Shown piece by piece: positions 1 through 43,813 of a DNA stretch of 64,000 bases. The first letter of the stretch is position 1. Each line of letters begins with the position of its first letter. Source of the DNA: an uncultured Gammaproteobacteria bacterium (GTDB lineage Bacteria; Patescibacteriota; Patescibacteriia; Magasanikbacterales; GWA2-37-8); contig CAZINT010000002.1 of the NCBI GenBank assembly GCA_964540825.1, forward strand, positions 477-64,476, written 5' to 3'. The position numbers and the translations under genes were made by a program. The notes below the pieces were generated by a model. The model ran no database searches, was not told where the DNA came from, and was given only the letters and a program-made list of their open reading frames with translations.

Positions 1-24
1 CAAGGTAGCTGGGCTCAATTAGAA

Positions 25-558
25 ATGGCGTTGACACTTGTTTTTCATAAAATTCTCAGCGAGGAATTTTTGGTGGTGCGTGCCAGTCAGTTTGATGACT
101 ACATGAATGGAGTCGATTATTTAATTATTGATCGTAAAACAGGCAATGTTGCTTGTTCGTTCGATGGTTTTAATAGTAAAGCTGGCGACCTGAAATACGC
201 TGAAAAGATGTACAAAACTATTGATAAAGCCAAAAAAGGTGGTGCAAAAGTAAAGTATGGTGTTTCTTTTGAGCAAAATCAGGGCGAACGAGAAATCGTG
301 CGTAAGCCCGTGGAGCATGTTGTTCCGTTTAACGTATCACTCAGCGATGATGAACTTCAAGAATTACTGACAGGCATGGAAACGAATATTAACGGTGCAG
401 TCACACCTGTTGAAAAAAGAGTCTTTGAAACTGTTATGAAGAGTTTGGAAGAGCAGCAAAAAATGTTGGCTAAAGAAGACTTGCCAGAAGATATGAGGAC
501 TGAACTTGACGCTTTCAAAATTTCATTTGAACGAATGCAGCGGCTTGGAAAAAAATAA
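25..558 (+). CDS. hypothetical protein (177 aa), first gene of a tightly coupled pair
   Basis: Complete ORF. A 4-nt gap separates it from the next ORF. No recognisable family. Confidence 0.5.
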   Translation: MALTLVFHKILSEEFLVVRASQFDDYMNGVDYLIIDRKTGNVACSFDGFNSKAGDLKYAEKMYKTIDKAKKGGAKVKYGVSFEQNQGEREIVRKPVEHVVPFNVSLSDDELQELLTGMETNINGAVTPVEKRVFETVMKSLEEQQKMLAKEDLPEDMRTELDAFKISFERMQRLGKK

Positions 559-561
559 TGT

Positions 562-1086
562 ATGCCTAAAAAGAAAATCACTGGTACCGATCGGTTTCAA
601 GGTACATATACTTATGAACTGGTTGAACCGGTCGGAAAACACTTTGATCCTGAATTTAAGCCGGAATTAACGCCGGCCGAAATGTTAAAATTAGGCGTTT
701 TTGGCGGCGCATATTTTATCGGCGTGGATGGACTTGTTCCTGACGATCTGCCGGCAAGTTGGTTCAAAGGCGTAAAACTCTCTAAGGATGGTAAAAAACA
801 CGCCAACCTTAATTTTTTTAATGTATCCGCCAGCCAGCCCCTCAGTGTCTGGCAGGCTAAGGGCTGGATCGCGCTCTGTGACCCGCACGGCTGGTTTCAG
901 TGGTATTGTCGGTATTATCTCGGCAGACGTATTCCGGGCGAAGATAGGCGGCAAATTGGACGTTGGAAAGCCATTACCCGACATATCGGGCAGATTAAGA
1001 AATATTGCAAAAAAGGTGATTTGTCGTGCCGTCCACGGCAACGCCAAGCGCTTCTGCACTGGGCATATGATAGCCGGAAAATGTAG
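562..1086 (+). CDS. hypothetical protein (174 aa) with a Trp/Tyr/Arg-rich C-terminal motif (GWFQWYCRYYLGRR...RQIGRWK)
   Basis: ORF directly follows 25..558. Ends at a bidirectional terminator hairpin. Family not recognised. Confidence 0.55.
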   Translation: MPKKKITGTDRFQGTYTYELVEPVGKHFDPEFKPELTPAEMLKLGVFGGAYFIGVDGLVPDDLPASWFKGVKLSKDGKKHANLNFFNVSASQPLSVWQAKGWIALCDPHGWFQWYCRYYLGRRIPGEDRRQIGRWKAITRHIGQIKKYCKKGDLSCRPRQRQALLHWAYDSRKM

Positions 1087-1092
1087 CAAAAA

Positions 1093-1125
1093 ATAATCCC
1101 GACCACGCGTCGGGATTATTTTAAG
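1093..1125. terminator. bidirectional rho-independent terminator (aatcccgac-gcgtg-gtcgggatt flanked by A/T runs)
   Basis: Perfect 9-bp inverted repeat with an A-run upstream and a T-run downstream. It lies between convergent ORFs. Confidence 0.6.
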
Positions 1126-1195
1126 GCACCCGAGTTCTGCCAGGCACGAGTGCTGTGCTGACGAACTCGGGGAAGTCATCGGGTGAAAGGAGGTC

Positions 1196-1768
1196 TTATG
1201 CGGCCAAGTGCTTTACAGCCTCAGCTGATGTTAGGGTGCTTTCAGCCTTCGTGAGCGCCGGATAGCGGTAGGTGTGTATAGCCACGGGGAGCACCGAGGA
1301 GCGCCTTGGTACCTGCTTGGCGTTGACTACGCGCAGGCCGAGCCCCTGCTTACGGACCCTGACACGCATCCAGCTTTTCGCGCTGATGCTGTAGAGGTAG
1401 CATTTCCACGATTTTCGGAGATGTCTCAGGCCGATCTCGTAGACGTAGCCGTCGAGAACGAGTCGTGGTTTTATTTGGGTATTCACAGCGACCTCCACGG
1501 TGATTTGAAAAAAATCTGGACGTGGTTCCTCGATGCTTACGAAAGCGCAAGGATCAGACATGTGGCGAAGAAGCCATTTTTTAAGCTCAGCGAGCTGGAG
1601 CACAGAGTGGGCATAATGCGCTGGCTGCCTTCCACGCTGAACAAGCAGCAAAGCCCTTCGACGAATTTTTTCTTTTTTGTCTACAGCCTCCGACCAGATA
1701 AGGTGGAGTATGCTCAGGTACAGGCTCAAGAAGAGCCCGACTTCGACAGACAAATGCCGTCGCGGCAT
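1196..1768 (-). CDS. hypothetical protein (190 aa) on a GC-rich (~57%) foreign cassette
   Basis: SD AGGAGG sits 6 nt before the ATG at 1768. A TTGACA..TATACA-like promoter lies upstream on the minus strand. The terminator at 1093-1125 follows. GC is well above flanking DNA. Confidence 0.55.
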   Translation of the reverse strand: MPRRHLSVEVGLFLSLYLSILHLIWSEAVDKKEKIRRRALLLVQRGRQPAHYAHSVLQLAELKKWLLRHMSDPCAFVSIEEPRPDFFQITVEVAVNTQIKPRLVLDGYVYEIGLRHLRKSWKCYLYSISAKSWMRVRVRKQGLGLRVVNAKQVPRRSSVLPVAIHTYRYPALTKAESTLTSAEAVKHLAA

Positions 1769-1840: not shown

Positions 1841-3073
1841 TTAATTAGCGGCATTTTCTCCTGCCGCGCGTCCGGTTGCCCAAGCAGCTTGCAAATTAAA
1901 TCCACCGGTAAATCCGTCAATGTTTAAAATTTCACCGGCAAAAAAGAGGTCGGGACAAAGTTTTGATTCCATTGTTTTGGGATTCACTTCGCCGAGGTCA
2001 ACTCCTCCTGCAGTGACAAATTCGTCACCGGCTCCGCGTACAATAGCATTGAGAACTGACTTTTTAAGCGCCAGGGCAGTTTTTTCCAATTCCAGTTTAC
2101 TAATTTCACCATTTGTTTTTTCACCAGGCAGTTTGTGTTCGTTACTAATAATTTCGGCCACCGATGCTGGCACGAAAAAATGCAGACTATTTTTAAAAAG
2201 TTTTTTTGGATGTTCGAGCGCTTTATTTTTGAGGAGTTCGCCAACTTCTTCGATGGAATGATCGGGAACAAAATCTATGGTAAGAGGCAGGGGATTGGTG
2301 GGTCCGAAATTTTCAAAGGCAGTGAGTGACGACAGTGCAAAAACAGCTGGGCCGGTAATGCCGCTATGGGTAAATAAAAAAGGTCCGGCAGCAGTTTCCG
2401 TTTTAGTGCGGCCGGCCGAAAGATGGGCGTATTTAATCGAAACGCCGGCTACTGTCTTTGGCCATTTTTCTTTGGTGATAAATGAATGCAAGCTGGGGCC
2501 GAGTGTCGTGATGGTGTGACTCAGGGATTCGGCGAGTGTATAGCCGTCGCCGGTTGAACCGGTATGGCGATAGGCTTGTCCGCCAAGTGATAAAATAACT
2601 TTTTGCACCTGGAGTGGTGGATTATTTTTACTCTGAATTATAAAACCTTTGGGGATTCTTTCAATTTTGGTTACTGCTTGATTAAGCAATACTTTGGTGT
2701 GGTGCTTGGTAAAAAGTGCTTCAAAAGCTTTTACGATGTCGGTACCGCGATTAGAAATCGGGAAGACGCGGTTATCAGCTTCGCATTTGAGGGGGACGCC
2801 ATGTGCTTCGAACCAGGCAATCACGGCTTCGGGCGGGAAATTGTTAAAAGCAGAAATAAGGAATTTATTACCGCGGGGGTATTTGGTGAGAATTTCTTTA
2901 AGGTCGGTAAGGCCGGTTGTCACGTTGCAGCGTCCGCCACCTGAGATAACGACTTTTTTACCGAGTGCGTCATTTTTTTCAAATACAAAAACCTCAGCTT
3001 TGGGGTTAGTTTCGTTGATTGTGGCTGCGGCCATAAGGCCGGCGGCGCCTCCACCGATAACGGCGATTTTCAT
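1841..3073 (-). CDS. NAD(P)/FAD-dependent oxidoreductase, HI0933/BaiN (aminoacetone oxidase-like) family
   Basis: N-terminal GGGAAG dinucleotide-binding motif. Full-length similarity pattern to the HI0933 flavoprotein family (…GGGRCN…). Confidence 0.85.
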   Translation of the reverse strand: MKIAVIGGGAAGLMAAATINETNPKAEVFVFEKNDALGKKVVISGGGRCNVTTGLTDLKEILTKYPRGNKFLISAFNNFPPEAVIAWFEAHGVPLKCEADNRVFPISNRGTDIVKAFEALFTKHHTKVLLNQAVTKIERIPKGFIIQSKNNPPLQVQKVILSLGGQAYRHTGSTGDGYTLAESLSHTITTLGPSLHSFITKEKWPKTVAGVSIKYAHLSAGRTKTETAAGPFLFTHSGITGPAVFALSSLTAFENFGPTNPLPLTIDFVPDHSIEEVGELLKNKALEHPKKLFKNSLHFFVPASVAEIISNEHKLPGEKTNGEISKLELEKTALALKKSVLNAIVRGAGDEFVTAGGVDLGEVNPKTMESKLCPDLFFAGEILNIDGFTGGFNLQAAWATGRAAGENAAN

Positions 3074-3204
3074 ACGTTTTTGTTTATTGGCTTAGTCTAC
3101 CTGAAAGGATGTGATTTGCCTAGCGGGCCACGAAGGAAGGATGGGCAAAAAATAAAAACACCCCCGGCTGGTGAAAAGCTGGAGGTGCTGATTCTGGGCT
3201 GTAT

Positions 3205-17205: not shown

Positions 17206-18258
17206 TTACCCTTTATATTCGTTTAAAAAAACAAGCGTTGCGCGTTCGGCTATTTTGAGACGTGCATTGGTAAACTTTTTCATTTTTGATCTTTTGGCAC
17301 AATCAGGTAAACGGTGTTTGAGATAGACTGCCAGTACTCCGGGATGGATATAGGATTTTCTACAAATTGCAGGTGTGTTACCGAGCTCCTCGGCAACCTG
17401 TTGAATGGTGGTGGTGATATTTTTTTTAAGCTCGGTTTTGGTTGTGGCAGCAGATTGGATTAAAAGCTGCTTGAGTGCTGAGACGGTAGCGTGCCAGGTC
17501 CTGAAATCTTTGGCGGTAAAATCATTCTGGGAGATTTCTTTCAAATACGCATTTACATCGTTTGATTCAACACGATGGATTGACCCGTCGCTGTCGCGAT
17601 ATTCAAATAGTTCGTACCCGGGCAATTCTTGGCTGGTATGAATAATTTTAGCCAGTTCTTTGTTGTGGAATTCAACGGTATGCTGAATGCCTCGTTTACC
17701 GCGAAACGAAAATTGGATTGTATCGCCGTGTATTCGGGCATGACGATTGCGAAGGGTGGTTAAGCCATAGGATTTATTTTCTTTGGCATATTCTTCGTTG
17801 CCAATACGAATATGGGTTTTGTCGAGCACGGCTACGATCGCCGCTAGTATTTTTTGACGTGGATTTCCTTTTTCGTGAAGTTGTTTATGCACCGTTTCTC
17901 TAATTGCGGGCAGTGCTTGGCCGAACGCAAGCATGTGCTCAAATTTATTAGCATCTCTCACGGCTCGCCAATTAGGATGATAGAGATACTGCGTGCGCCC
18001 TCGTTGGTCCTTGCCGGTGGCCTGCAGGTGACCATTAGCAAATGGAGAAATGTGTACATCACGGTAGGCGGGCGGAATTTTAATTTGCCTGATCCGTTTT
18101 AAAATAGTTTTATCGGTAATTGTTGTGTTTGCAGTATCGCGATACCTAAAACCTCGCCCTAAACGAACGCGAGTGATGGTCAGTTTTTCTGGGTACATGT
18201 AGTGTAGTCCATTTTCTTCTGCAATACTTTTGCTGTCGAGTTCCGGTGTTTGGTGCAT
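17206..18258 (-). CDS. DNA topoisomerase IB (poxvirus/bacterial TopIB type)
   Basis: Conserved TopIB catalytic region: SFRGKRGIQHTVEF…DFTAKDFRTWHATV…CRKSYIHPGV (active-site Tyr context). Confidence 0.8.
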   Translation of the reverse strand: MHQTPELDSKSIAEENGLHYMYPEKLTITRVRLGRGFRYRDTANTTITDKTILKRIRQIKIPPAYRDVHISPFANGHLQATGKDQRGRTQYLYHPNWRAVRDANKFEHMLAFGQALPAIRETVHKQLHEKGNPRQKILAAIVAVLDKTHIRIGNEEYAKENKSYGLTTLRNRHARIHGDTIQFSFRGKRGIQHTVEFHNKELAKIIHTSQELPGYELFEYRDSDGSIHRVESNDVNAYLKEISQNDFTAKDFRTWHATVSALKQLLIQSAATTKTELKKNITTTIQQVAEELGNTPAICRKSYIHPGVLAVYLKHRLPDCAKRSKMKKFTNARLKIAERATLVFLNEYKG

Positions 18259-31771: not shown

Positions 31772-32209
31772 TTACGCAATGTGCTTGGGTTCAAAGCTCA
31801 CCATCCACTCAATTCCATACTTGTCTCTAAAAGAGCCAAAGTATGAACCCATAAGTGGATTTTCATCCATAGGAAATTCTACCTCTCCTCCTACAGAAAG
31901 TCCGTTGAATAATTTGTCTGCCTCTTCTTTGCTTTCTGCGTTTATTGTAATTTTACTTCTGTTTTCGCGCTCGTTTGTTTTTCCCATAAATTTTGGAACA
32001 TCATTAGCCGTCAGCACCGTATGCTTTCCAATAGGCAAAGCAATATTCATTATTTTATTTTCTTCATCCTCCGGTATGGGGAACCCAGGGTTTTTAAGGT
32101 CTTTAAAGCGAACAATTTTTGTCAGCTCTCCGCCAAAAACTGATTTGTAAAAAGTGAATGCTTCTTCGGCATTTCCGTTGAAGTTAATGTGGGGGTTGAT
32201 GGACGCCAT
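31772..32209 (-). CDS. VOC/glyoxalase-family protein (PhnB-like)
   Basis: PhnB-like pattern (FNGNAEEAFTFYKSVFGGE…). Confidence 0.65.
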   Translation of the reverse strand: MASINPHINFNGNAEEAFTFYKSVFGGELTKIVRFKDLKNPGFPIPEDEENKIMNIALPIGKHTVLTANDVPKFMGKTNERENRSKITINAESKEEADKLFNGLSVGGEVEFPMDENPLMGSYFGSFRDKYGIEWMVSFEPKHIA

Positions 32210-32433
32210 ATTTTAAAGAGTAATTTAAATATGCGAAACTATAGCATGTAGACAGCTCTCTTGCCTAGAGCACCTAAACTACTGCTTAGGCAAGCCGTAT
32301 TTTTTTACGCTCCAGTTCTTAAATGATGTTAAAACTTATTTTGCCCCAAAATATTGATGCTGCATTGACGATAATCAAAATATTAAGTATAATTGCTGCT
32401 GCTTTGTCATTGTTTTTATTGTGTATCAAATAT

Positions 32434-34363: not shown

Positions 34364-35815
34364 CTATTTTGCGCTACTGCTGGAGAGGCCGTAGTGCTTC
34401 TCGAGCCTCGGTGCAACGATTCGCAGCATGATGTAGCGAATCACGAGTATGGCCAGGATAGCACTCCACCATTTCCAGTAGTACAGAAGGACCACAGGGT
34501 ATCCGATAACCAGAGATAGACTCACATGCCAACCTTCCTTCAGCCAACGAGCCATGTTCCCTGCCTGAGGAAAGTAGTCTTCATTCGTCAAGGCAACACC
34601 GGCCGAAGTGCCGATGGGGGTCAGCGATCCGCCAACATTCACCGGGAAGAAGAAACGACCCCAGACGTACTGTGCCCCAGCCTTTGCCTGGATAATGGCT
34701 ACGGCTGTTAGGGGAATATTGTCGAACACTGCCGAAATCAATCCGGCGATGAAGTCGCTGTACCAGGTTGGTTCCGGTAGCCCGGTGAGGGGAACCATGT
34801 TGGCAGACGCGATGAGGCCGATAAGAAAGAGGGCTCCCTTCCCGGCATCAAGAAAGCCTGATTTCCAGTGGGTCTTGCGGAAGAATGAGCCGAAGATCAG
34901 GCCGATCATCACCATCCCGCCCATCCAGGGGTAACTCTCAGCGAGTTCCCGATGCCTGAACATAATATAGAAGTTGAGGGCGACGGCGCTCCCGAGCACA
35001 ACACCGAAGATGATGAGGTGGCCCCCGTTGATTCCTACTTTGAGAGTGGAATCTTTCTGGATGGGGTGGTGTGCTTGCTGCTGGATCGATGAGATCACCC
35101 CTGAGATGTAGATTACTGCACAGCCACCGAAGTAGGCCGGCAGGAATTTGTACCAAGCCATACCAGCAAGGTACGCCATTAAGTCCGGGGTGTCGCCGAT
35201 AAAACTGCCAGCCCCTCCTGCGTTCGACATGACCACGACGCTTGTGATGAAGCTTATGCTTACACGACCGGCGTAGACGCCTTTGGCCGTCTTGCCCATC
35301 ACAATAGCGGTAATTATGTTGTCGAGGATTCCTGACAGCGCAAAGCCGTACTTCTGCAGTTGGAATCCTCCTCGCCAGTCATCCTTAAGATAGCGGGGCA
35401 CGATCCGAGGAAGGTGGCTATCACTGAAATGACCACCCAGGATGTCGAAGCCGATCAGGAGGAGTCCCAGGTTTACCAATTCGGGGCCTTTGTGCCCCAA
35501 AAAGTGGTAGACACCCTCCTTTCCGCTATGGACAATCGCACCATGTCCTACTGCAGGGAAAAAAGTTACACAGATCATCGCCGCCAAGCCGCCCATCGAC
35601 CACCAGAACTTCTCATGATGGTGAAGTGCGACTCCTGTTAGTGTCGCGACAAAAACCAGGTACTGAGCCGGCAGTCGGAGTGTGAGGATTACTCCTATCT
35701 CAATTAGGAAGAGTAGGCCGATATTTCTTTTTGCCCAGCGCAACAAAGAAATACCGCACCGGCACAGTAGGCGTAGAACACTTTTATAGTTGCTTCTTTT
35801 CAACTTTTCCTCCAT
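34364..35815 (-). CDS. ArsB/NhaD-family permease (putative Na+/H+ antiporter NhaD or anion permease), GC-rich (~55%)
   Basis: About 12 TM helices. Conserved GD(T)P-containing segment. GC is clearly above the flanks. Confidence 0.6.
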   Translation of the reverse strand: MEEKLKRSNYKSVLRLLCRCGISLLRWAKRNIGLLFLIEIGVILTLRLPAQYLVFVATLTGVALHHHEKFWWSMGGLAAMICVTFFPAVGHGAIVHSGKEGVYHFLGHKGPELVNLGLLLIGFDILGGHFSDSHLPRIVPRYLKDDWRGGFQLQKYGFALSGILDNIITAIVMGKTAKGVYAGRVSISFITSVVVMSNAGGAGSFIGDTPDLMAYLAGMAWYKFLPAYFGGCAVIYISGVISSIQQQAHHPIQKDSTLKVGINGGHLIIFGVVLGSAVALNFYIMFRHRELAESYPWMGGMVMIGLIFGSFFRKTHWKSGFLDAGKGALFLIGLIASANMVPLTGLPEPTWYSDFIAGLISAVFDNIPLTAVAIIQAKAGAQYVWGRFFFPVNVGGSLTPIGTSAGVALTNEDYFPQAGNMARWLKEGWHVSLSLVIGYPVVLLYYWKWWSAILAILVIRYIMLRIVAPRLEKHYGLSSSSAK

Positions 35816-36072: not shown

Positions 36073-36273
36073 TTATGCCGCTTCAAATCGTGCCTTGTTA
36101 TCTTCCATCCATTTTTGCATTCCGGCCATTTTTTCTTGGTCTGAAGCGTTTGATGCCTGTTTCATAAAGTCTTGGTGGGCTTCAGCATAGTGAGATTTCA
36201 TAGCATTCATCCATTCTCCAAAAGTTTCACCTTGTGCTGTTACTTCGCACAAATCACAGCTAACTGTTTTCAT
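36073..36273 (-). CDS. DUF1059-like small protein
   Basis: MKTVSCDLCEVTAQGETFGEW… matches the DUF1059 pattern. Confidence 0.45.
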   Translation of the reverse strand: MKTVSCDLCEVTAQGETFGEWMNAMKSHYAEAHQDFMKQASNASDQEKMAGMQKWMEDNKARFEAA

Positions 36274-36341
36274 ACATTTTTATTAATTTAATACTATTTG
36301 AAATATAGCATACAAGAATAATTATGCCTATCTATAGCGTA

Positions 36342-36409
36342 TCGGTTCGAAGTCTCGTGGCCGGTAAAAATATAAATGGCTTAGAAAAGCCGTTTTTATG
36401 CTGGCTCCG
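36342..36409. repeat. ~68-bp intergenic element (copy 1) containing a terminator-like palindrome aatggctt…aagccgttttt
   Basis: About 80% identical to 38112-38179. Begins with cggttcgaag. Confidence 0.55.
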
Positions 36410-36491
36410 GGGAAGATACTCTAACTCGCAATAAATTTGGCTAAGATTGTCGAAAATAATTTTTGATCTTCGGCAGCGATGTGGCTGGAAT

Positions 36492-37091
36492 TTAAAATTC
36501 AATCCGGCTGCTTCTGTTAAGCATGTCCTCTTTAATTCGATCTAGCTCTCCATAGACAGGGGTGTCCGTCAAGTCAGTTCTTATTAGGGTTTTCTTATTT
36601 AATTCTCCATTAGTATTTAGGCGTTCGGTTCCACGTTCCACGCAAATATTTAACATTTCTCCGTAGGCCTCGGTAAATACATCCTTATCAAAATAAAAGC
36701 CTCTTGCCTCAGCTATCTCTTTGGCTGTATTAAAAACGTTATCATCAAATACCACATCATGATTTCCGCTCAGAACGACAAGGCGGCGACCTAATATGTT
36801 TTTTAATTCCCTTAATACTGAAATATACCTTTTTCCTTCTTTAGCGTCCTCAATCAATTGCGGTTGTTCGGTGTGAGCAAAAGCAAACATCAATTCATTG
36901 GGGTTTAATTTTTTAGCTTTTTCTAAATACTTGTCTAACAATGTTTCGTATTCCGCCATGCGTGCTTTATACGGGTTTCGAGTCGGGTCGTTTTCTGGCA
37001 TCAGTGGAACCTCCCGACTTAAAAATCCAGGGTGTATTAGAAAATGTATCTTTTGAATATTTGGCTTACTTTGTAAATTAATATTGCTCAT
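36492..37091 (-). CDS. hypothetical protein (199 aa) with a GNHD metallophosphoesterase-like motif
   Basis: Low-GC island gene. LVVLSGNHDVVFDD motif. Otherwise unrecognised. Confidence 0.45.
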   Translation of the reverse strand: MSNINLQSKPNIQKIHFLIHPGFLSREVPLMPENDPTRNPYKARMAEYETLLDKYLEKAKKLNPNELMFAFAHTEQPQLIEDAKEGKRYISVLRELKNILGRRLVVLSGNHDVVFDDNVFNTAKEIAEARGFYFDKDVFTEAYGEMLNICVERGTERLNTNGELNKKTLIRTDLTDTPVYGELDRIKEDMLNRSSRIEF

Positions 37092-37340
37092 ATTGAAATT
37101 TTCAAATGTTTTTACTAGGAATGGGATTCGAACCGGAAGATTTGCCTAGTTTATCAAGTTTTTTAGTCCTTGTCATTTTTGGATGGGGATGGCAATAGAA
37201 AAGTCGCTTTTTACCATCCCCGTCGCTCTTGGCTAAGTTAAAACAAAAATCCGACCTGACGGGGGTCGGTCGGATTCACAAGATAAAATGGCTCTGGTTG
37301 GTAGATGAAGTTAGAACTTGTTTATAAAAGAGTGCAATGA

Positions 37341-38072
37341 TTAGATGGTTTCATTTCGATTAATAATATATGTTTTACGTTCACAGCTAAGCTGGTTAGT
37401 CGAAATCACTATTACACTTACTCTGACATCTTCTTCGTCGTTTTTAGGTTCAAAGGCCGCGTATATGTAAGTTGCTATTTTTTTGCAATCGCCTGAAGGC
37501 AATTTTAGCGGAATAGGCTTTCCAACAAAAGAAGGTGTAGGGCGAACATTGGGGCCATCATAGGTAGAAATGAATAGTGCATTTTCTTGGACTGTATCTA
37601 AAGCATAGCAATCTCTAACCGGTTCCTGGTAATCATTGCTGCGAATAATGTGTAAAGCACAGGTCCAATTTCCATTCTTTTCCAAAATGCAGCCCGTTAT
37701 GCGCGGAGTATTATATTTATCAATTTCGAATGTTTCATCTTTTAAATCTTCATTAAGTTGTTCCTCGGCATTATTTTTAGTCAATGAATGTACTCTATCG
37801 GTTTGTCTTCCATTGCCGATAATCAATCCAGTTTCGAAAAAATGAACAGCACTATAATCGAGTAAACTTAGATCACCTTGAGCCATTATTTCCGCGTCTG
37901 TAGCTTCAACAATAATAGATTTTTTATCTTCACTAAAAACATACCGCTTAGCTCGACTAGAAATATTTCTAGCGGTAACACCATACACGGCAATAATTTC
38001 TTCGTTTCTTTTTCCCAGAATAAGAAAACGACCGGGATAGGGCTTGTTTTTTGCTATTTCTTTAATTTCCAT
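37341..38072 (-). CDS. IMP cyclohydrolase PurO-like (archaeal-type, NTN-hydrolase fold) protein, tentative
   Basis: YPGRFLILGK…VYGVTARNISSRAKR…DKYNTPRI…LFISTY blocks resemble PurO (YLGRI…NTPRI…ISTY). This is based on remembered family features only. Confidence 0.4.
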   Translation of the reverse strand: MEIKEIAKNKPYPGRFLILGKRNEEIIAVYGVTARNISSRAKRYVFSEDKKSIIVEATDAEIMAQGDLSLLDYSAVHFFETGLIIGNGRQTDRVHSLTKNNAEEQLNEDLKDETFEIDKYNTPRITGCILEKNGNWTCALHIIRSNDYQEPVRDCYALDTVQENALFISTYDGPNVRPTPSFVGKPIPLKLPSGDCKKIATYIYAAFEPKNDEEDVRVSVIVISTNQLSCERKTYIINRNETI

Positions 38073-38111
38073 ATCTGTTTACTTAGTGATAATTTTTTAG
38101 ATAGTAGCATG

Positions 38112-38179
38112 CGGTTCGAAGGTATGCTAGAGGGTAAAAATAAAAATGGCTTATTAAAGCCATTTTTATGCTTGCTCCC
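38112..38179. repeat. ~68-bp intergenic element (copy 2) with the perfect palindrome AAAAATGGCTT-atta-AAGCCATTTTT
   Basis: Aligned by eye to 36342-36409. The start gcggttcgaagg and the terminator-like hairpin are shared. Confidence 0.55.
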
Positions 38180-38276
38180 TTCGTTGGACGAGTTCAGAAC
38201 TATTGATTGGAAACAGTTGATGAAAGAAATAAGTTTTATTCCAAACTTTGCTACGGCTTAAGAAGAGGAACATTAT

Positions 38277-39221
38277 TTATTCAACTTTAGTTATTTCTTT
38301 TACAGGATACCCAAACCCTGCCCCGTCATTTCTAGCGGAATAAAGGCCCTCGTTTATGAACGTTAATTTTCCGGATTTATTAGTAACAAATTCAAAATCC
38401 ATTTCGCTCGTTATTTGTGATCCTAAAGCCTGCTGATTTGCTACCCAGACACTTTTGTTGCCATTTGGTGATTCCACCAATTTAACAAACCTTCTGTCCA
38501 AAGTTTTAACAGGAAGCTGCTGTATAACATTGGCTGCAAAATAAGCTCCGACTGAGTATTCGGCGAAAGGGTCGCCCGTGAAGGATCGTGGATTAGTCGA
38601 GTCGTATGGAACCATATGCTGAAAATAGGGATCGTAGAGCACAACTGTGTTTCCTTCGGCAGCCCGTAGCCAAACATGTCCAATGTCGTGTGGTCTCCGG
38701 TCTTTAAATAATGAAGAGGCTCCATATATCATCTGAGTGTTTATTTCCGGTCTAACGGCTTTTAGTAATCCGGCTGCTACCAAAACTTTGCCAGCGCAGG
38801 CGCTGTGCCCTTTTTCCACTATTTCTGAAACTCTGGTAATTCTCTCATCACGAGCATCAGAACGTATGGTTTTTTGAACAATTTCATCCAAATTACCCAT
38901 GGTTTCTTCTAAGTTTTGACCTTTTTTCAAGGAACTTTTTAACCTAGCTATCAACGGTTGTACTGTGACGGAGTCAAAATCTAATTTTAATGGTTGATGC
39001 TGTGTTTCTATACTATTATTTCCATAGAAAAAATTTTTATCATTCACGTCAAATTCAGGAAAACCGGCAACAATATGATGTCTGCCTTCCGGCACTTCTA
39101 TTGTTGTTTTTCTTATTCCCGCTTCGTTTATATCTCCAATTATTTTGAAATTTTTCCGCTCTAAAGTTTGAAGGAAAGAGCGTTTTGATTCTGGTTTGTG
39201 ACCTAGCTCAGGGTGTTTCAT
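38277..39221 (-). CDS. transglutaminase-like superfamily protein (putative Cys-His-Asp papain-fold enzyme)
   Basis: GHSACAGKVLVAAGLL (Cys) … HVWLRAAEGNTVVLYDPYF (His, Asp), in the spacing typical of transglutaminase-like cysteine proteases. Confidence 0.5.
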   Translation of the reverse strand: MKHPELGHKPESKRSFLQTLERKNFKIIGDINEAGIRKTTIEVPEGRHHIVAGFPEFDVNDKNFFYGNNSIETQHQPLKLDFDSVTVQPLIARLKSSLKKGQNLEETMGNLDEIVQKTIRSDARDERITRVSEIVEKGHSACAGKVLVAAGLLKAVRPEINTQMIYGASSLFKDRRPHDIGHVWLRAAEGNTVVLYDPYFQHMVPYDSTNPRSFTGDPFAEYSVGAYFAANVIQQLPVKTLDRRFVKLVESPNGNKSVWVANQQALGSQITSEMDFEFVTNKSGKLTFINEGLYSARNDGAGFGYPVKEITKVE

Positions 39222-39355
39222 AAATTGTTTTGATCGGGTAGAGCTGAAGGTTTAGTATAAAAAGTAATATTATTGTACTCTACGAAATAAAAATTATCTA
39301 GATGTACATATTTAAAATAAAAATATTGGCTAATTTTAGCCAATATTTTTGAACG

Positions 39356-39427
39356 CTCCCGGGGTCGGATTCGAACCGACGACCAATTGGTTAACAGCCA
39401 ACTGCGCTACCGCTGCGCTACCCGGGA
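39356..39427 (-). tRNA. tRNA-Asn (anticodon GUU)
   Basis: Manual fold: 7-bp acceptor stem TCCCGGG/CCCGGGA, D arm GCGC…GCGC, anticodon loop CTGTTAA, T arm GTCGG-TTCGAAT-CCGAC, discriminator G. CCA is not encoded. Confidence 0.85.
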
Positions 39428-39724: not shown

Positions 39725-41092
39725 TTATAACAGTTGATAATTCTTAGCCGGCTCTTTCACGCGATTAAACACCACATCCATTATATTCTTTACCCCAAAT
39801 TGGCGTCCATCCAGGTATCCTGACATAGCCGCTTCCGCCAGCCATCCCGAGTTGACCCAGTCAAAAAGCCATTCGTGAGTATATCGCGGGTCGTTTTGGC
39901 TGATACCGCCATCAATAGTTTTGAGCCAAATGCGATTAAACTTTTCTTGGCTGCCAAGAGATGGTGCCATGATGATCGGGAGACCTAGCCCCGAGTAAAA
40001 AACGAGTTCACTGGGTTTAGTCCAAAGAATGTCTGTGGTGCGCAGTGCCTCATTAAAGATTTTAAAATATTCTTCTTTATCTGCAGCAAAAATGATCTTA
40101 AGATTTTTGTTAAGGCGTTTATCAAGGCCGAGTTCGAAAATACGTTGTTTGAAGTACAGGTAAACGTCGTTGCGGCTGCCTGCAACGAGATTAAGGTTAA
40201 TTTTTTTCTTAAGAAGTGTATCTTTAAGACTATACAAAATAGCCTCGGCAATTTTGCGCTGCGCACCAGCTCCGCCTACGGCGAAGGTGAGTGTAAGCGG
40301 GTGGTGGTGGCGGACACCGAGTTTTGTTTTTGAAATAAACTGTTTAATAGTGGAAGCATATTTTTGGCGATAGCGCTGTTCGGGGTCAAGGTTAATAATG
40401 CGCTCCGCCAAATCGTGCTGTAGTGTTTTTAAATGTGTGGAACCAATATTTTCCTCAGGGAGCGGGAAGCCGGTCAAGAAAATATTTTCGTTTTTAATGC
40501 CATAGAGCTTAAGACGACTAACTACCTGACGACACGGTGCGAAGTATTTAATACGGCTTTTAGTGGGGTGGAGCGGTGCCCAGGCGCGGCTGATGTCTGA
40601 ATCGCAAATAACCACGTAGATATCGTTTTTGAAACCGTGTTCTTCGGCCATAAACGCTACGGTAAAAAACGTGGTAATAAGGGGAATGTTTTTTTGATTA
40701 AGGTAATTGACAAGGTCTTTGCCCCAACCTTTATGTATTAAATAATAATTTTGACGTACCTGGAGGTTTGGTGCTGATAAGTCTCGGCGCGGATAAAATG
40801 GCGGAACTTCTTGAAATTTATCGAGTAAACCAAAAATGATACCGCCAATAAGTGGAAGGTTACTCAGGCGCGAAACAGATTCATACAATTTTTGACCGCC
40901 ATGCCACAGTTGGTAATCACTTGCCGGTATACCATTGTATTTGTTGGCAATAATAACTTTCCCGGTAGGGGAGAGGTGGCGCAGGGGATACGCCGCACGC
41001 TGGTGCCCATATCCCATATCAACAGCCACTACCCAAGCCTCCTTTTTCATAATAAACGAGAGAGAGCTTTTGAACGTACTCGAAAATTTCAA
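39725..41092 (-). CDS. glycosyltransferase, MGDG-synthase/UgtP-like (GT28-type) family
   Basis: N-terminal VVAVDMGYGHQRAAY motif typical of the MGDG synthase N-domain. About 450 aa with two Rossmann halves. Confidence 0.55.
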   Translation of the reverse strand: MKFSSTFKSSLSFIMKKEAWVVAVDMGYGHQRAAYPLRHLSPTGKVIIANKYNGIPASDYQLWHGGQKLYESVSRLSNLPLIGGIIFGLLDKFQEVPPFYPRRDLSAPNLQVRQNYYLIHKGWGKDLVNYLNQKNIPLITTFFTVAFMAEEHGFKNDIYVVICDSDISRAWAPLHPTKSRIKYFAPCRQVVSRLKLYGIKNENIFLTGFPLPEENIGSTHLKTLQHDLAERIINLDPEQRYRQKYASTIKQFISKTKLGVRHHHPLTLTFAVGGAGAQRKIAEAILYSLKDTLLKKKINLNLVAGSRNDVYLYFKQRIFELGLDKRLNKNLKIIFAADKEEYFKIFNEALRTTDILWTKPSELVFYSGLGLPIIMAPSLGSQEKFNRIWLKTIDGGISQNDPRYTHEWLFDWVNSGWLAEAAMSGYLDGRQFGVKNIMDVVFNRVKEPAKNYQLL

Positions 41093-42321: not shown

Positions 42322-42604
42322 GAATTCCTCACTTTAAGCTGTTTAACGTCATACATCTTTTTTAAGCAGTTGTCAAGATAGTTTCCCAAAAAAACCTTAT
42401 ACATTAGCCAAAAATAAACTTTTAAATTTTTTATGTACTTAGTAATTTTTTAGGATTGACAAAACACCTTTTTTATGCTAGGATTGAACGTTTTGAAAAG
42501 TAACCCGACGATTAATTTCGGCTCGTTGGGCTGCAGGTTCTCGAGTGGAGCTATTTGCAAGCTCCATTTGGAGAGGACCTGTTTTTCGATCAAGGAGTCA
42601 TCAC

Positions 42605-43813
42605 ATGCCGATCCAGTCTGTCGTCACCCCGATCACCTCCAACCTCAGCGATGGCGTCCCCGAGCTGCTTGGGGATGACAAGGACACCGACCGCATGGTC
42701 GTTCCGCCCTTTGTCCAGCCCCCCATGATTGGCCTTGCGCCCCCCGAGCGCGCGGTCCTGGAGGCGTACGCGCGGTTCTACGCCATGCTCAACCCCCAGC
42801 TCGAATTTCCGCAGCCAAGGATCATTGATGGCCAGTACTACTGCGGCATGCCCGCTGGCCTCCCGTGCTGCGACCGATCCTTCACGGTCGACAGGTGGAG
42901 CATCCGTAGCGGTATCGTGATCGGGATTTGCCAGCAGGCGAGTGTTGTTTTCGTGAAGGTGAACAATCACGAGTACCCCGCGGCCAAGCACCTCCTCTGG
43001 ACCGGCTCCCTGACCCGGGCCAGGGAGATCGCCGCCAACCAGGCAGAGAAGATCCAGCGCCCGCCCGCCCAGGCCCGCCCCGTGCGTCGTCGCCCCGAGG
43101 ATCTCGTGGTCAAGCCGACGTCCGGTACGATCTTCCGTCCCATCCCTCCGAAGAAGGTGTTCGTCCCGGCCGCGGTCACCCCCGCGCCTGCGATCACTAT
43201 CACCGTGGCCACCCCGGCCGCTGTCATCAAGGAGGACAAGAACAAGGGTGCCGAGAAGCGCGTCGCCCGCAAGACCAAGGTCCACGAGCTCACCTCGCGC
43301 CTCCGCCTCGTCGGCATGGAGGAGAACGAGGCCTCCAGCGCCGCCGAACGAGTGGCGTACAAGTTCGAGAAGAAGACCGGTAGCGAATTGACCCCAGAGG
43401 ATAGTGCGTCGAACATCTTCGGCAGCGCCATCGACGGGCTTCTCGAGGCCGCCGCGACCTTCGGGGAAGATAACGCCGAGTATCAGGTCAAGATCAGGCT
43501 GTGCCGCTACTACCTGGCGGCCTCCACTATCCTCGAGTCGATCCTGACCGGAGAGACCGACGTGGAGCAGATCAAGCGCCACGACCACCCCGAGATCATG
43601 GACAAGATCGTGAGCATGCTCGCGGCTGTCAAGCATGAGCTCGCGGATCGTGCGGCCATCGCTCGCGCCCACGCCGTGCCCAGCGAGAAGCCCTTCGCTG
43701 TCGTCGAGGGCCACCGCCGACGCCCGACCCCGGTCGCGCCCACCAAGAAGCTCGGGGGTGGTCAGAACGCCAACAAGAACAACAACCAGGCCCGCGGCAA
43801 GCGCGGGCAGTAG
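42605..43813 (+). CDS. hypothetical protein (402 aa), very high GC (~65%) foreign gene, Ala/Pro-rich
   Basis: TTGACA-N17-TAGGAT promoter at 42457-42487. SD AAGGAG 7 nt before the ATG. Strong third-position GC bias. The terminator at 43856-43895 follows. No family recognised. Confidence 0.6.
   Translation: MPIQSVVTPITSNLSDGVPELLGDDKDTDRMVVPPFVQPPMIGLAPPERAVLEAYARFYAMLNPQLEFPQPRIIDGQYYCGMPAGLPCCDRSFTVDRWSIRSGIVIGICQQASVVFVKVNNHEYPAAKHLLWTGSLTRAREIAANQAEKIQRPPAQARPVRRRPEDLVVKPTSGTIFRPIPPKKVFVPAAVTPAPAITITVATPAAVIKEDKNKGAEKRVARKTKVHELTSRLRLVGMEENEASSAAERVAYKFEKKTGSELTPEDSASNIFGSAIDGLLEAAATFGEDNAEYQVKIRLCRYYLAASTILESILTGETDVEQIKRHDHPEIMDKIVSMLAAVKHELADRAAIARAHAVPSEKPFAVVEGHRRRPTPVAPTKKLGGGQNANKNNNQARGKRGQ

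Follow-up and report, generated by a model that had tools for sequence, protein, structure and literature searches.

Introduction

The tycheposon islands of Prochlorococcus start at a tRNA gene, and, as one integration follows another at this site, older material is displaced distally; partial tRNA copies separate the units, and degenerate elements and flanking DNA from other hosts accumulate among them (bioRxiv 10.1101/2020.12.28.424599). The elements, which mostly use tyrosine recombinases and in a minority of cases large serine recombinases, are found in hosts with streamlined genomes (bioRxiv 10.1101/2020.12.28.424599). These tRNA-proximal additive islands are the closest described model for the locus examined here, which lies 3' of the tRNA-Asn gene in a 64,000-nucleotide stretch (contig CAZINT010000002.1, positions 477 to 64,476; hereafter the window) from a member of Candidatus Magasanikbacteria (Patescibacteria, or candidate phyla radiation, CPR). 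In this island, genes are separated by copies of a conserved element of ~95 nt that was designated the R unit. On balance, it is probable that R units are junction modules derived from attachment (att) sites through serial site-specific insertion at tRNA-Asn, and that the region 3' of this gene is an accretion array of cassettes carrying 1-2 genes each.

In Streptococcus, the cis-mobilizable elements (CIMEs) are att-flanked segments without recombination genes of their own, which arise by tandem accretion, when site-specific integration beside an existing element is followed by decay. They measure several kb and are potentially mobilized in trans; their boundaries are simple att repeats, used by a tyrosine integrase, at the 3' end of the protein-coding gene fda. 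In elements with large serine recombinases (phiC31, Bxb1 and ccr-type), the recombinase gene adjoins its attachment site. CPR/Patescibacteria have tiny genomes and their gene acquisition is poorly understood; no account of cassette arrays or of islands linked to a tRNA gene was found for this group in the literature.

A repeated unit in the island spacers

Two spacers of the island, at 36342-36409 and 38112-38179, had been described in an initial annotation, made from the sequence alone, as copies of a palindromic, recombination-site-like element of ~68 bp with about 80% identity. They are a genuine repeat. Over a 46-nt core (36363-36408 and 38133-38178) the two share 41 of 46 positions (89%; blastn expectation value (E) 1.4e-9), and CGGTTCGAAG is present exactly in both, at 36343-36352 and 38112-38121. 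Over the full 68 bp the two spacers match at 49/68 positions when compared ungapped, because the copies are offset by one base, and the ~80% figure is approached (~79%, own count) when one gap is allowed. On both strands of the window, no other 68-mer matches at more than 35/68 positions once the palindromic self-matches of the element (41 and 40/68) are set aside, and blastn detected no third copy of the core in the 64 kb. The hairpin of the 38.1-kb copy, AAAAATGGCTT ATTA AAGCCATTTTT (38142-38167), is a perfect palindrome, a property that had been assigned to both copies, but the hairpin of the 36.4-kb copy (36372-36397) is imperfect, with mismatches. The position of the 38112-38179 spacer also had to be corrected, because all island genes are on the minus strand: it is downstream of a gene for a 314-aa protein and upstream of the PurO-like gene, rather than after the latter.

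The 68-bp element is conserved and repeated, as proposed, but it does not stand alone and forms the core (terminator and flank) of the longer unit, which has a tRNA-like arm upstream. Alignment of copies shows that the R unit, read on the gene-sense strand, consists of an arm, a hairpin followed by a T-run, and a flank that includes (G)TTCGAAC. The arm is 33 nt long (AAACAAGTTCTAACaTCrTyCCAyAAnnGGAGC) and aligns to the T-arm and the 3' strand of the acceptor stem of the tRNA, while the sequence of the hairpin is variable. The unit that includes 38112-38179, designated e3, extends over 38101-38204 on the minus strand. Its arm (38174-38201) ends in GGGAGC and is followed by the hairpin at 38142-38167 with its T-run (ATTTTT), by CTTCGAACCG at 38112-38121 and by a TGCTACTAT box at 38101-38109. 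The unit that includes 36342-36409, e1, occupies 36302-36428 on the same strand and has a decayed arm (36404-36427) that ends in CGGAGC, the hairpin at 36372-36397 with a T-run, CTTCGAACCG at 36343-36352, and TAGGCA-17-TATATT with a TG motif at 36330-36302. Hairpin and flank of e1 and e3 are 89% alike, whereas their arms are unrelated to one another. No Rfam 15 family besides tRNA was detected at gathering or permissive thresholds, with e3 unmatched up to E 5; the sole Rfam match over e1 (36289-36438) is to isrQ and is far sub-threshold (21 bits against a gathering threshold of 50, E 0.72).

The hairpins of R units have the form of intrinsic terminators, with a G+C-containing stem downstream of a stop codon and a T-run after it on the transcribed strand, and, as predicted from their sequence, should end transcription of the upstream gene. 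A terminator scan of the minus strand returned 39350-39319 (the hairpin directly 3' of tRNA-Asn, designated T0), 37269-37251 in the middle spacer and 36391-36378 in e1; the hairpin and T-run of e3 were read from the sequence. Promoter-like boxes of the form TGnTAnnnT were found by promoter scan in e1 (TGCTATATT) and in a distal unit, R4 (TGCTATAGT), and by eye in e3 (TGCTACTAT) and in the units of the related loci L010, L012 and L092 (TTTGATAAGAT). No consensus structure was predicted by RNAalifold for ten units, because their alignment registers differ. An extended palindrome, in which the arm pairs with the downstream flank, is strong in the native tRNA flanks of L013, L015, L038 and L043 and in one unit of L010 (L010_R2, z -4.1); the value is -2.1 for L092_R2 and is not significant for e1 (-0.8) or e3 (-0.3). 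On account of these last two values, an interpretation of the window copies as folded sites of the attC kind was dropped.

Models built from other genomes only were used as a control against circularity. There are at least four R units or arms in the window, at 38.2, 37.3, 36.4 and 32.3 kb, and the best window matches of the leave-out models are those at 38.2, 37.3 and 32.3 kb, with the 36.4-kb copy weak. A hidden Markov model (HMM) of the R unit that includes only L010 and L092 has e3 as its best window match (model positions 7-93, E 1.3e-4) and R4 (32340-32281) as the third (E 0.045), behind a palindromic reverse-strand match of e3. The top three matches of an arm HMM, also from other genomes, are 37322-37291 (E 0.0014), 32340-32309 (E 0.0028) and 38203-38174 (E 0.93). 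Each falls in an intergenic spacer of the island and reads on the minus strand, and those at 37322-37291 and 38203-38174 follow gene stops. Given the matches at 37.3 and 32.3 kb, the array in the window is longer than had been described. The e1 copy scores E 6e-14 with an R HMM that includes e1 itself and only 2.4 with a leave-out model, so that its membership rests mainly on its likeness to e3.

An HMM of seven R-unit copies was applied to 1.02 Mb of DNA that included the window. All significant matches are 3' of tRNA-Asn, aside from L002, a locus selected by its hairpin pattern, and there is no significant match on the equally sampled 5' side. A generic terminator family, the outcome against which the element had been proposed for testing, would occur after unrelated core genes; the element is not such a family within the sampled DNA, where the R matches are confined to the 3' side of tRNA-Asn. 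Scans of viral contigs with the hairpin pattern and with the arm motif gave no match.

The middle spacer and the distal unit

The spacer between the PurO-like gene and the next gene of the island, which encodes a 199-aa protein, is more complex. Directly after the PurO-like stop is an R arm, AAGTTCTAACTTCATCTACCAACCAGAGC (37291-37322, minus strand), which is the best window match of the arm HMM and was missing from the earlier description of this spacer; it is identical to the arm of the distal R unit of L086 at 30 of 33 positions (own count). The predicted terminator of the PurO-like gene follows at 37240-37276 (minus strand; terminator scan) and covers the second of two fragments that had been likened to a tRNA T-arm. 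Its stem is formed by a T-arm remnant of tRNA-Asn (GAATCCGACC...) and an inverted copy of that remnant. The previously noted hairpin GGGGATGG...CCATCCCC is present at 37185-37221 on the minus strand.

That T-arm-like fragments exist here is borne out by direct inspection of the sequence, by the 12-nt GGATTCGAACCG at 37124-37135, which matches tRNA-Asn exactly, and by an HMM of tRNA-Asn 3' halves, for which 37135-37122 is the best non-self match in the window (E 0.13; others are weaker). The sense fragment, CCGGTTCGAATCCCA at 37118-37139, agrees with the CCCAC allele of tRNA-Asn found in relatives and not with the allele of the window itself. Words resembling GTTCGAAC are not enriched over the window (21 found, 25 expected), and 4 of the 21 fall in the three island spacers.

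The distal unit R4 (32281-32340, minus strand) is decayed and consists of the arm AAGTTTTAACATCATTTAAGAACTGGAGC and a degenerate hairpin, ACGGCTTGCCTAAGCAG. It was recognized by the arm HMM from other genomes (E 0.0028) and by R HMMs (E 0.03-0.045). It is followed by a promoter-like TAGGCA-18-TATAGT box, found by promoter scan, and then by a glyoxalase-like gene (31772-32209).

Native tRNA-Asn flanks and related arrays

Eighty loci that encode relatives of the conserved neighbour of the array, DUF6938 (39725-41092), were fetched, and the source names of homologues assign the lineage to Candidatus Magasanikbacteria (Patescibacteria). A trio of genes for an FkbM methyltransferase, DUF6938 and tRNA-Asn is conserved in relatives, and the island proteins of the window and its Na/H exchanger are found 3' of tRNA-Asn in none of them. 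In the closest relative, L086 (82% identity), synteny extends for >10 kb on the DUF6938 side and ends at the tRNA.

An HMM of e1 and e3 was run against 0.88 Mb of loci plus the window. With the copies of the window disregarded, and likewise L002, a locus obtained through the hairpin pattern, the best match was in L013 (E 0.0027), followed by weak matches in L029 (E 1.6) and L010 (E 1.9). The three matches share their starting point, in register at the GGAGC with which tRNA-Asn terminates, and on this basis the 68-bp element is a copy of the native 3' flank of tRNA-Asn. Each window copy likewise opens, on the minus strand, with GGAGC or GGGAGC, the last bases of tRNA-Asn, and the similarity between native flanks and R units begins at GGAGC. 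On this sequence evidence, the tRNA-Asn 3' end together with its native downstream DNA appears to be the source from which the R unit descends.

Repeat-separated arrays with unrelated cargo and conserved R units occur 3' of tRNA-Asn in at least 3 other lineages. In L010, the tRNA end with its flank and terminator is repeated three more times at distances of 1.1-1.4 kb, with 1-2 open reading frames (ORFs) between repeats; the cargo consists of an APH kinase and a PsbP-like protein, a RhuM/Fic protein, and an LCM methyltransferase. Five copies are present in L092/L093 (GCA_017991415.1) and three in L012. L010 and L012 are 77% identical in core DNA and have no cargo in common, and their R units are 80-97% identical. 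Thus other genomes repeat, with cargo of their own, the layout originally proposed for the window, in which every gene or pair of genes of a cassette array is followed by a conserved element.

In L086, 2.6 kb that includes genes for a glyoxalase, an AI-2E transporter and a response regulator separates the tRNA end from a distal R unit, and the hairpin of this unit is nearly identical to T0, which abuts the tRNA in the window. This is the layout that insertion between GGAGC and an old flank would give. The 314-aa protein has only three homologues among 5.8 billion proteins. The gene for the closest (65% identity) is ~0.7 kb 3' of a tRNA-Asn with different upstream genes (DnaG, RpoD), and is followed by an arm that is ~74% identical to that of e3 (own count; arm HMM only E 9) and by a different hairpin. 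Since the arm was kept and the hairpin changed, the arm seems to stay with the cassette while hairpin and flank are exchanged. In L084, a PurO homologue (56% identity) is preceded by an R-like unit, and there is a second R-like unit 2.7 kb upstream of the homologue.

Exact partial halves of tRNA-Asn are present in relatives L019, L026, L045, L089 and L096. At L019 12364-12700, an intact tRNA-Asn is followed by a second copy that lacks the 5' end and is split by two GC-rich inserts of ~22 nt (ACCCAARGGGTCCCC..GGGG), and then by a third tRNA 3'-end fragment that bears the native terminator flank. This segment looks like a small insertion scar or a nested mini-element.

A scan for the exact e3 hairpin in one genome per species, in a collection that lacks the source genome, gave a single match, 3' of tRNA-Ser in a Christensenellales metagenome-assembled genome (MAG; L002). 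There, at 2850-3150, a direct repeat of 174 bp comprises the last 20 nt of tRNA-Ser and a hairpin identical to that at 38.1 kb, in the manner of an att-like duplication. The hairpin common to L002 and the window is probably a coincidence.

Recombinases associated with tRNA-Asn

No integrase had been recorded in the window, and no recombinase was found in its scanned ORFs; a tblastn search of the whole window with serine recombinases was also empty. In relatives, intact large serine recombinase genes are convergent to the full tRNA-Asn gene and overlap it in L041 (11440-13053), L044 (1130-2764) and L021 (3758-5236), all on the minus strand. The recombinases that abut tRNA-Asn carry Resolvase, Recombinase and Zn-ribbon domains. 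The coding sequence for their C-terminal tails crosses the terminator flank in antisense, where TTC(G/T)AACC gives (L/F)-E-P, and the last residues, LPGSDSNRRP or LRGWDSNPRP, are encoded by the tRNA 3' half (T-arm). An antisense overlap of this type was also seen at tRNA-Gln in L037, and perhaps in L017.

A scan of viral contigs for the 3' end of tRNA-Asn found L096, a contig of 9 kb with Zot, a rolling-circle Rep and a LexA-like repressor, which from its gene content looks like a filamentous phage. It encodes a 551-aa large serine recombinase (1-1656, minus strand), the gene for which ends across a 39-nt partial tRNA-Asn; this partial copy begins in the anticodon loop and does not differ from the window allele. 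This junction, with 8 nt that precede the partial tRNA, is found again in the MAG L089, where a recombinase lies beside an identical half, and the partial halves in L026 and L045 have the same boundary as that in L096. It is very likely that tRNA-Asn is an attachment site for serine recombinases in this lineage, and the recombinase class involved is likely to be the large serine recombinases. Of the two recombinase types previously named for a search, the serine type is the likely one in this lineage, and the tyrosine-type IntI that an integron would require was not found in the window or in ~100 annotated related loci.

Read antisense, T0 resembles the tail of the L041 recombinase (tblastn E 0.005), partly via the tRNA itself. 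Descent of e1 and e3 from antisense recombinase tails was considered and rejected, as tblastn support is limited to T0 and e1 and e3 show only motif-level likeness (RFEG / KNGL).

Origin of the array

Like an additive island, the locus has a variable block that begins directly at the 3' end of a tRNA gene, where synteny breaks. For the direct repeats of the tRNA 3' portion that such islands carry, the window offers diverged arms that end in GGAGC and are seen by the family model, and the HMM of tRNA halves gives only E 0.13 and weaker matches. The site-specific recombinase of such islands was not found in the scanned ORFs of the window; relatives have one, at tRNA-Asn in L021, L041 and L044 and next to a partial tRNA in L089 and L096. 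The earlier proposal of serial integration at tRNA-Asn with decayed att repeats is in keeping with repeats that derive from the tRNA-Asn 3' end and its flank and with a hypervariable 3' region.

In the scheme that we favour, site-specific recombination would insert incoming DNA at the 3' terminus of tRNA-Asn, or else at an R unit already in place. Exchange would take place at or just after GGAGC, and the arm would therefore remain with the cassette on its 5' side, while hairpin and flank would either be duplicated or be brought by the incoming DNA. The segments at 38112-38179 and 36342-36409 may then be attL-like and attR-like core copies flanking a 1.77-kb insertion that carries the PurO-like and 199-aa genes; a core duplicated in this way would explain why hairpin and flank are 89% alike and the arms are unrelated. 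The recombinase would act in trans, and the best candidate class is the large serine recombinases that abut tRNA-Asn in relatives.

Several observations weigh against this scheme. The e1 copy is weak in models from other genomes (E 2.4), and no recombinase of any kind was found in the island or in the scanned ORFs of the window. An HMM of true tRNA-Asn 3' halves misses the arms of e1 and e3, which have diverged from the tRNA. The elements with serine recombinases carry an exact 39-nt tRNA half that the R arms do not match, and because of this difference the link between these recombinases and the R-bounded cassettes is circumstantial. Furthermore, the comparisons are at the level of species (L086 with the window; L010 with L012), neither an excised or circular form nor a single cassette present in one strain and absent from another was seen, and the confinement of R units to the array holds for the DNA that was sampled, namely the window and the loci of relatives.

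A tentative extension is that R units are the true recombination sites of a cassette system in CPR, driven by a large serine recombinase that acts in trans and is provided by elements, phage-like or other, with tRNA-Asn as their target. Each cassette of 1-2 genes would then carry its own tRNA-like arm and a terminator/promoter leader, and would be inserted, at the tRNA-Asn 3' end or at R units already present, and excised. If so, the system would be a functional analogue of the integron with a different class of recombinase and a tRNA anchor. We give about the same low weight to the view that R units are portable terminator-promoter modules without a dedicated recombinase, and that cassettes are swapped by homologous recombination after DNA uptake, with tRNA-Asn and the 70-95-nt R units as homology anchors and with selection for transcriptional insulation keeping the units alike. 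The hairpin and T-run on the gene strand of each unit, the TG-extended -10 promoter-like boxes after e1 and R4, the much better conservation of hairpin and flank than of the arm between e1 and e3, and the lack of a recombinase in the window would all fit, and the R units of L010 and L012 (80-97% identity, in core DNA at 77%) are similar enough for short-patch recombination. Left unexplained, however, are the confinement of the units to the 3' side of tRNA-Asn, the mimicry of the tRNA 3' end by the arm with its GGAGC ending, the start of the similarity between native flank and R unit exactly at GGAGC, and the site-specific recombinases at this tRNA in relatives. An improbable alternative is a non-autonomous element like a miniature inverted-repeat transposable element (MITE), with imperfect terminal inverted repeats that resemble the tRNA T-arm (GTTCTAAC ... 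GTTCGAAC) and repeated insertion between genes. The length of ~95 nt, the inverted T-loop-like words at both ends of many copies and the long imperfect palindromes of L010_R2 (z -4.1) and L092_R2 (z -2.1) would suit such an element. Yet the units are found at one locus per genome, with none 5' of the tRNA or elsewhere in the 64-kb window (1.02 Mb sampled), and no target-site duplications are evident by eye. Moreover, the native tRNA flank, in register with the end of the tRNA, counts as a 'copy' itself, e1 and e3 have no significant extended palindrome, and the cargo between units differs among relatives, unlike MITE insertion into a fixed gene order.

The other reading offered at the outset, a classical integron array with attC sites and an IntI tyrosine recombinase, would now require an enzyme encoded outside the window and is very unlikely. 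The cassettes are mostly co-directional and, in most cases, a gene or gene pair is followed by a conserved and partly palindromic element, but a regular-expression scan of both strands over 31.7-39.5 kb found no RYYYAAC...GTTRRRY pair, and no IntI-like protein was found in the window or in ~100 annotated related loci. In addition, the array begins at a tRNA gene and not at attI, and the cassettes could not be read from a common Pc promoter, because every unit has its own predicted terminator. That intrinsic terminators of the ordinary AT-rich kind resemble each other by chance is the least likely reading; in its favour is the exact recurrence of the 26-nt hairpin behind tRNA-Ser in the unrelated Christensenellales MAG, which shows that such hairpins can recur independently. 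The identity of the pair reaches well past the hairpin (CGGTTCGAAG, GGTAAAAAT, TATGCTnGCTCC), and cross-genome models recover the units with E down to 1e-4. These models and the 68-mer ranking (49/68 for the pair, 35/68 for the next best) refute it.

Under serial insertion at tRNA-Asn, a hot spot that collects small, individually terminated cassettes would be a concrete route of gene flux in CPR. Such a route is plausible because the junction element is conserved, serine recombinases are found at the same tRNA in relatives, and a phage-like element bears the matching attachment site. The R-unit model also provides a simple marker for such arrays in metagenomes.

Gene content and surroundings of the array

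The array is anchored at tRNA-Asn (GTT; 39355-39427, minus strand; ARAGORN, and 71.5 bits with Rfam tRNA), which is the only tRNA of the window according to both ARAGORN and Rfam. On its other side are the genes for DUF6938 and the FkbM methyltransferase. T0 (39319-39350, minus strand) is the native terminator hairpin, a perfect inverted repeat of 15 nt that was called with 14 pairs in the terminator scan. The minus strand carries tRNA-Asn and every gene from 34.3 to 39.2 kb, and the GC content of the 35.8-39.3 kb block is 0.35-0.39, compared with ~0.45 on both sides. From the tRNA outwards, the order is T0, the 314-aa gene, e3, the PurO-like gene, the middle spacer with its R arm, own terminator and remnants, the 199-aa gene, e1, a 66-aa gene, a 483-aa gene, the exchanger on the opposite strand, R4 and the glyoxalase-like gene.

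The first cassette gene (38277-39221, minus strand) encodes the 314-aa protein, which has no Pfam, NCBIfam or PADLOC match; a Cys...His...Asp pattern seen by eye looks transglutaminase- or protease-like. The second (37341-38072, minus strand) encodes a 243-aa protein like IMP cyclohydrolase (PurO; PF07826, E 2.6e-27), the homologues of which bear the source names Magasanikbacteria/Patescibacteria. The third (36492-37091, minus strand) encodes the 199-aa protein, without a family match, and the fourth (36073-36273, minus strand) a 66-aa protein that looks DUF1059-like by eye. A 483-aa membrane protein with weak NhaD similarity (34364-35815, minus strand; GC 0.55, against 0.36-0.45 around it) is probably further island cargo. 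PADLOC gave 0 matches for 5 island proteins. No entry identical to either of two proteins of the window was found, probably because their start codons are called differently elsewhere.

In L083, which has the closest PurO homologue, the homologues of the 66-aa and PurO-like proteins are encoded by adjacent, co-oriented genes (951-1902) and are 53% and 75% identical, respectively, to those of the window, where the 199-aa gene and two R units lie between the two genes. L083 has no R units. The adjacency hints at a functional link or a common donor. Near this PurO homologue is also a GC-rich, structured-looking, non-coding segment of 620 nt (2534-3158) amid tightly packed AT-rich genes, with no Rfam family detected at the gathering threshold.

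Three further observations were made in and around the window. The interior of tRNA-Asn (~39391-39394) is an assembly break in independent metagenome assemblies of the window strain and of its closest relative (L001, L087, L088, L097), which fits either a junction that varies within the population or k-mers shared with att sites or further tRNA-Asn copies of the sample. A segment of 1.2 kb at 42545-43813 has a GC content of 0.62-0.68 in a genome of ~0.45 and contains ORFs on both strands (422 aa, plus; 374 aa, minus) without an NCBIfam match. The equivalent position in L086 has different genes (69, 494 and 76 aa), and the segment is probably a separate, horizontally acquired gene. The gene at 17206-18258 (minus strand) encodes a type IB topoisomerase of the bacterial kind (Topoisom_I and Top1B_N_bact), an enzyme uncommon in bacteria, and not an integrase.

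Comparison with known systems

Like the integrons, the window array has small, mostly co-directional cassettes that each end in a conserved, partly palindromic element of a length within the integron range (60-140 nt), and the cargo is unrelated between genomes while the element is conserved. It differs in having neither IntI nor attC core sites, in its tRNA anchor, in the terminator of each unit and in a candidate recombinase of the serine type. With phiC31, Bxb1 and ccr-type elements, the recombinases at tRNA-Asn in relatives share the Resolvase, Recombinase and Zn-ribbon domains; unlike those of the known elements, the 3' ends of their genes overlap the tRNA antisense, and their tails are encoded across the terminator and the tRNA 3' half. 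The array resembles the CIMEs in being made, on the favoured reading, of att-flanked segments that lack recombination genes of their own, but includes a conserved terminator/promoter-like module that CIMEs are not known to have.

The closest parallel is with the tycheposon islands. As in these, the window array starts directly at a tRNA gene in a host with a streamlined genome. However, its units contain only 1-2 genes with no integrase or replication genes, and no active element was seen in the window. The repeat between units is a conserved module of ~95 nt that is shared between genomes, rather than a plain partial tRNA. The host belongs to the CPR, and the module joins a tRNA-like arm to a terminator and, in e1 and R4, to a promoter-like box detected by scan.

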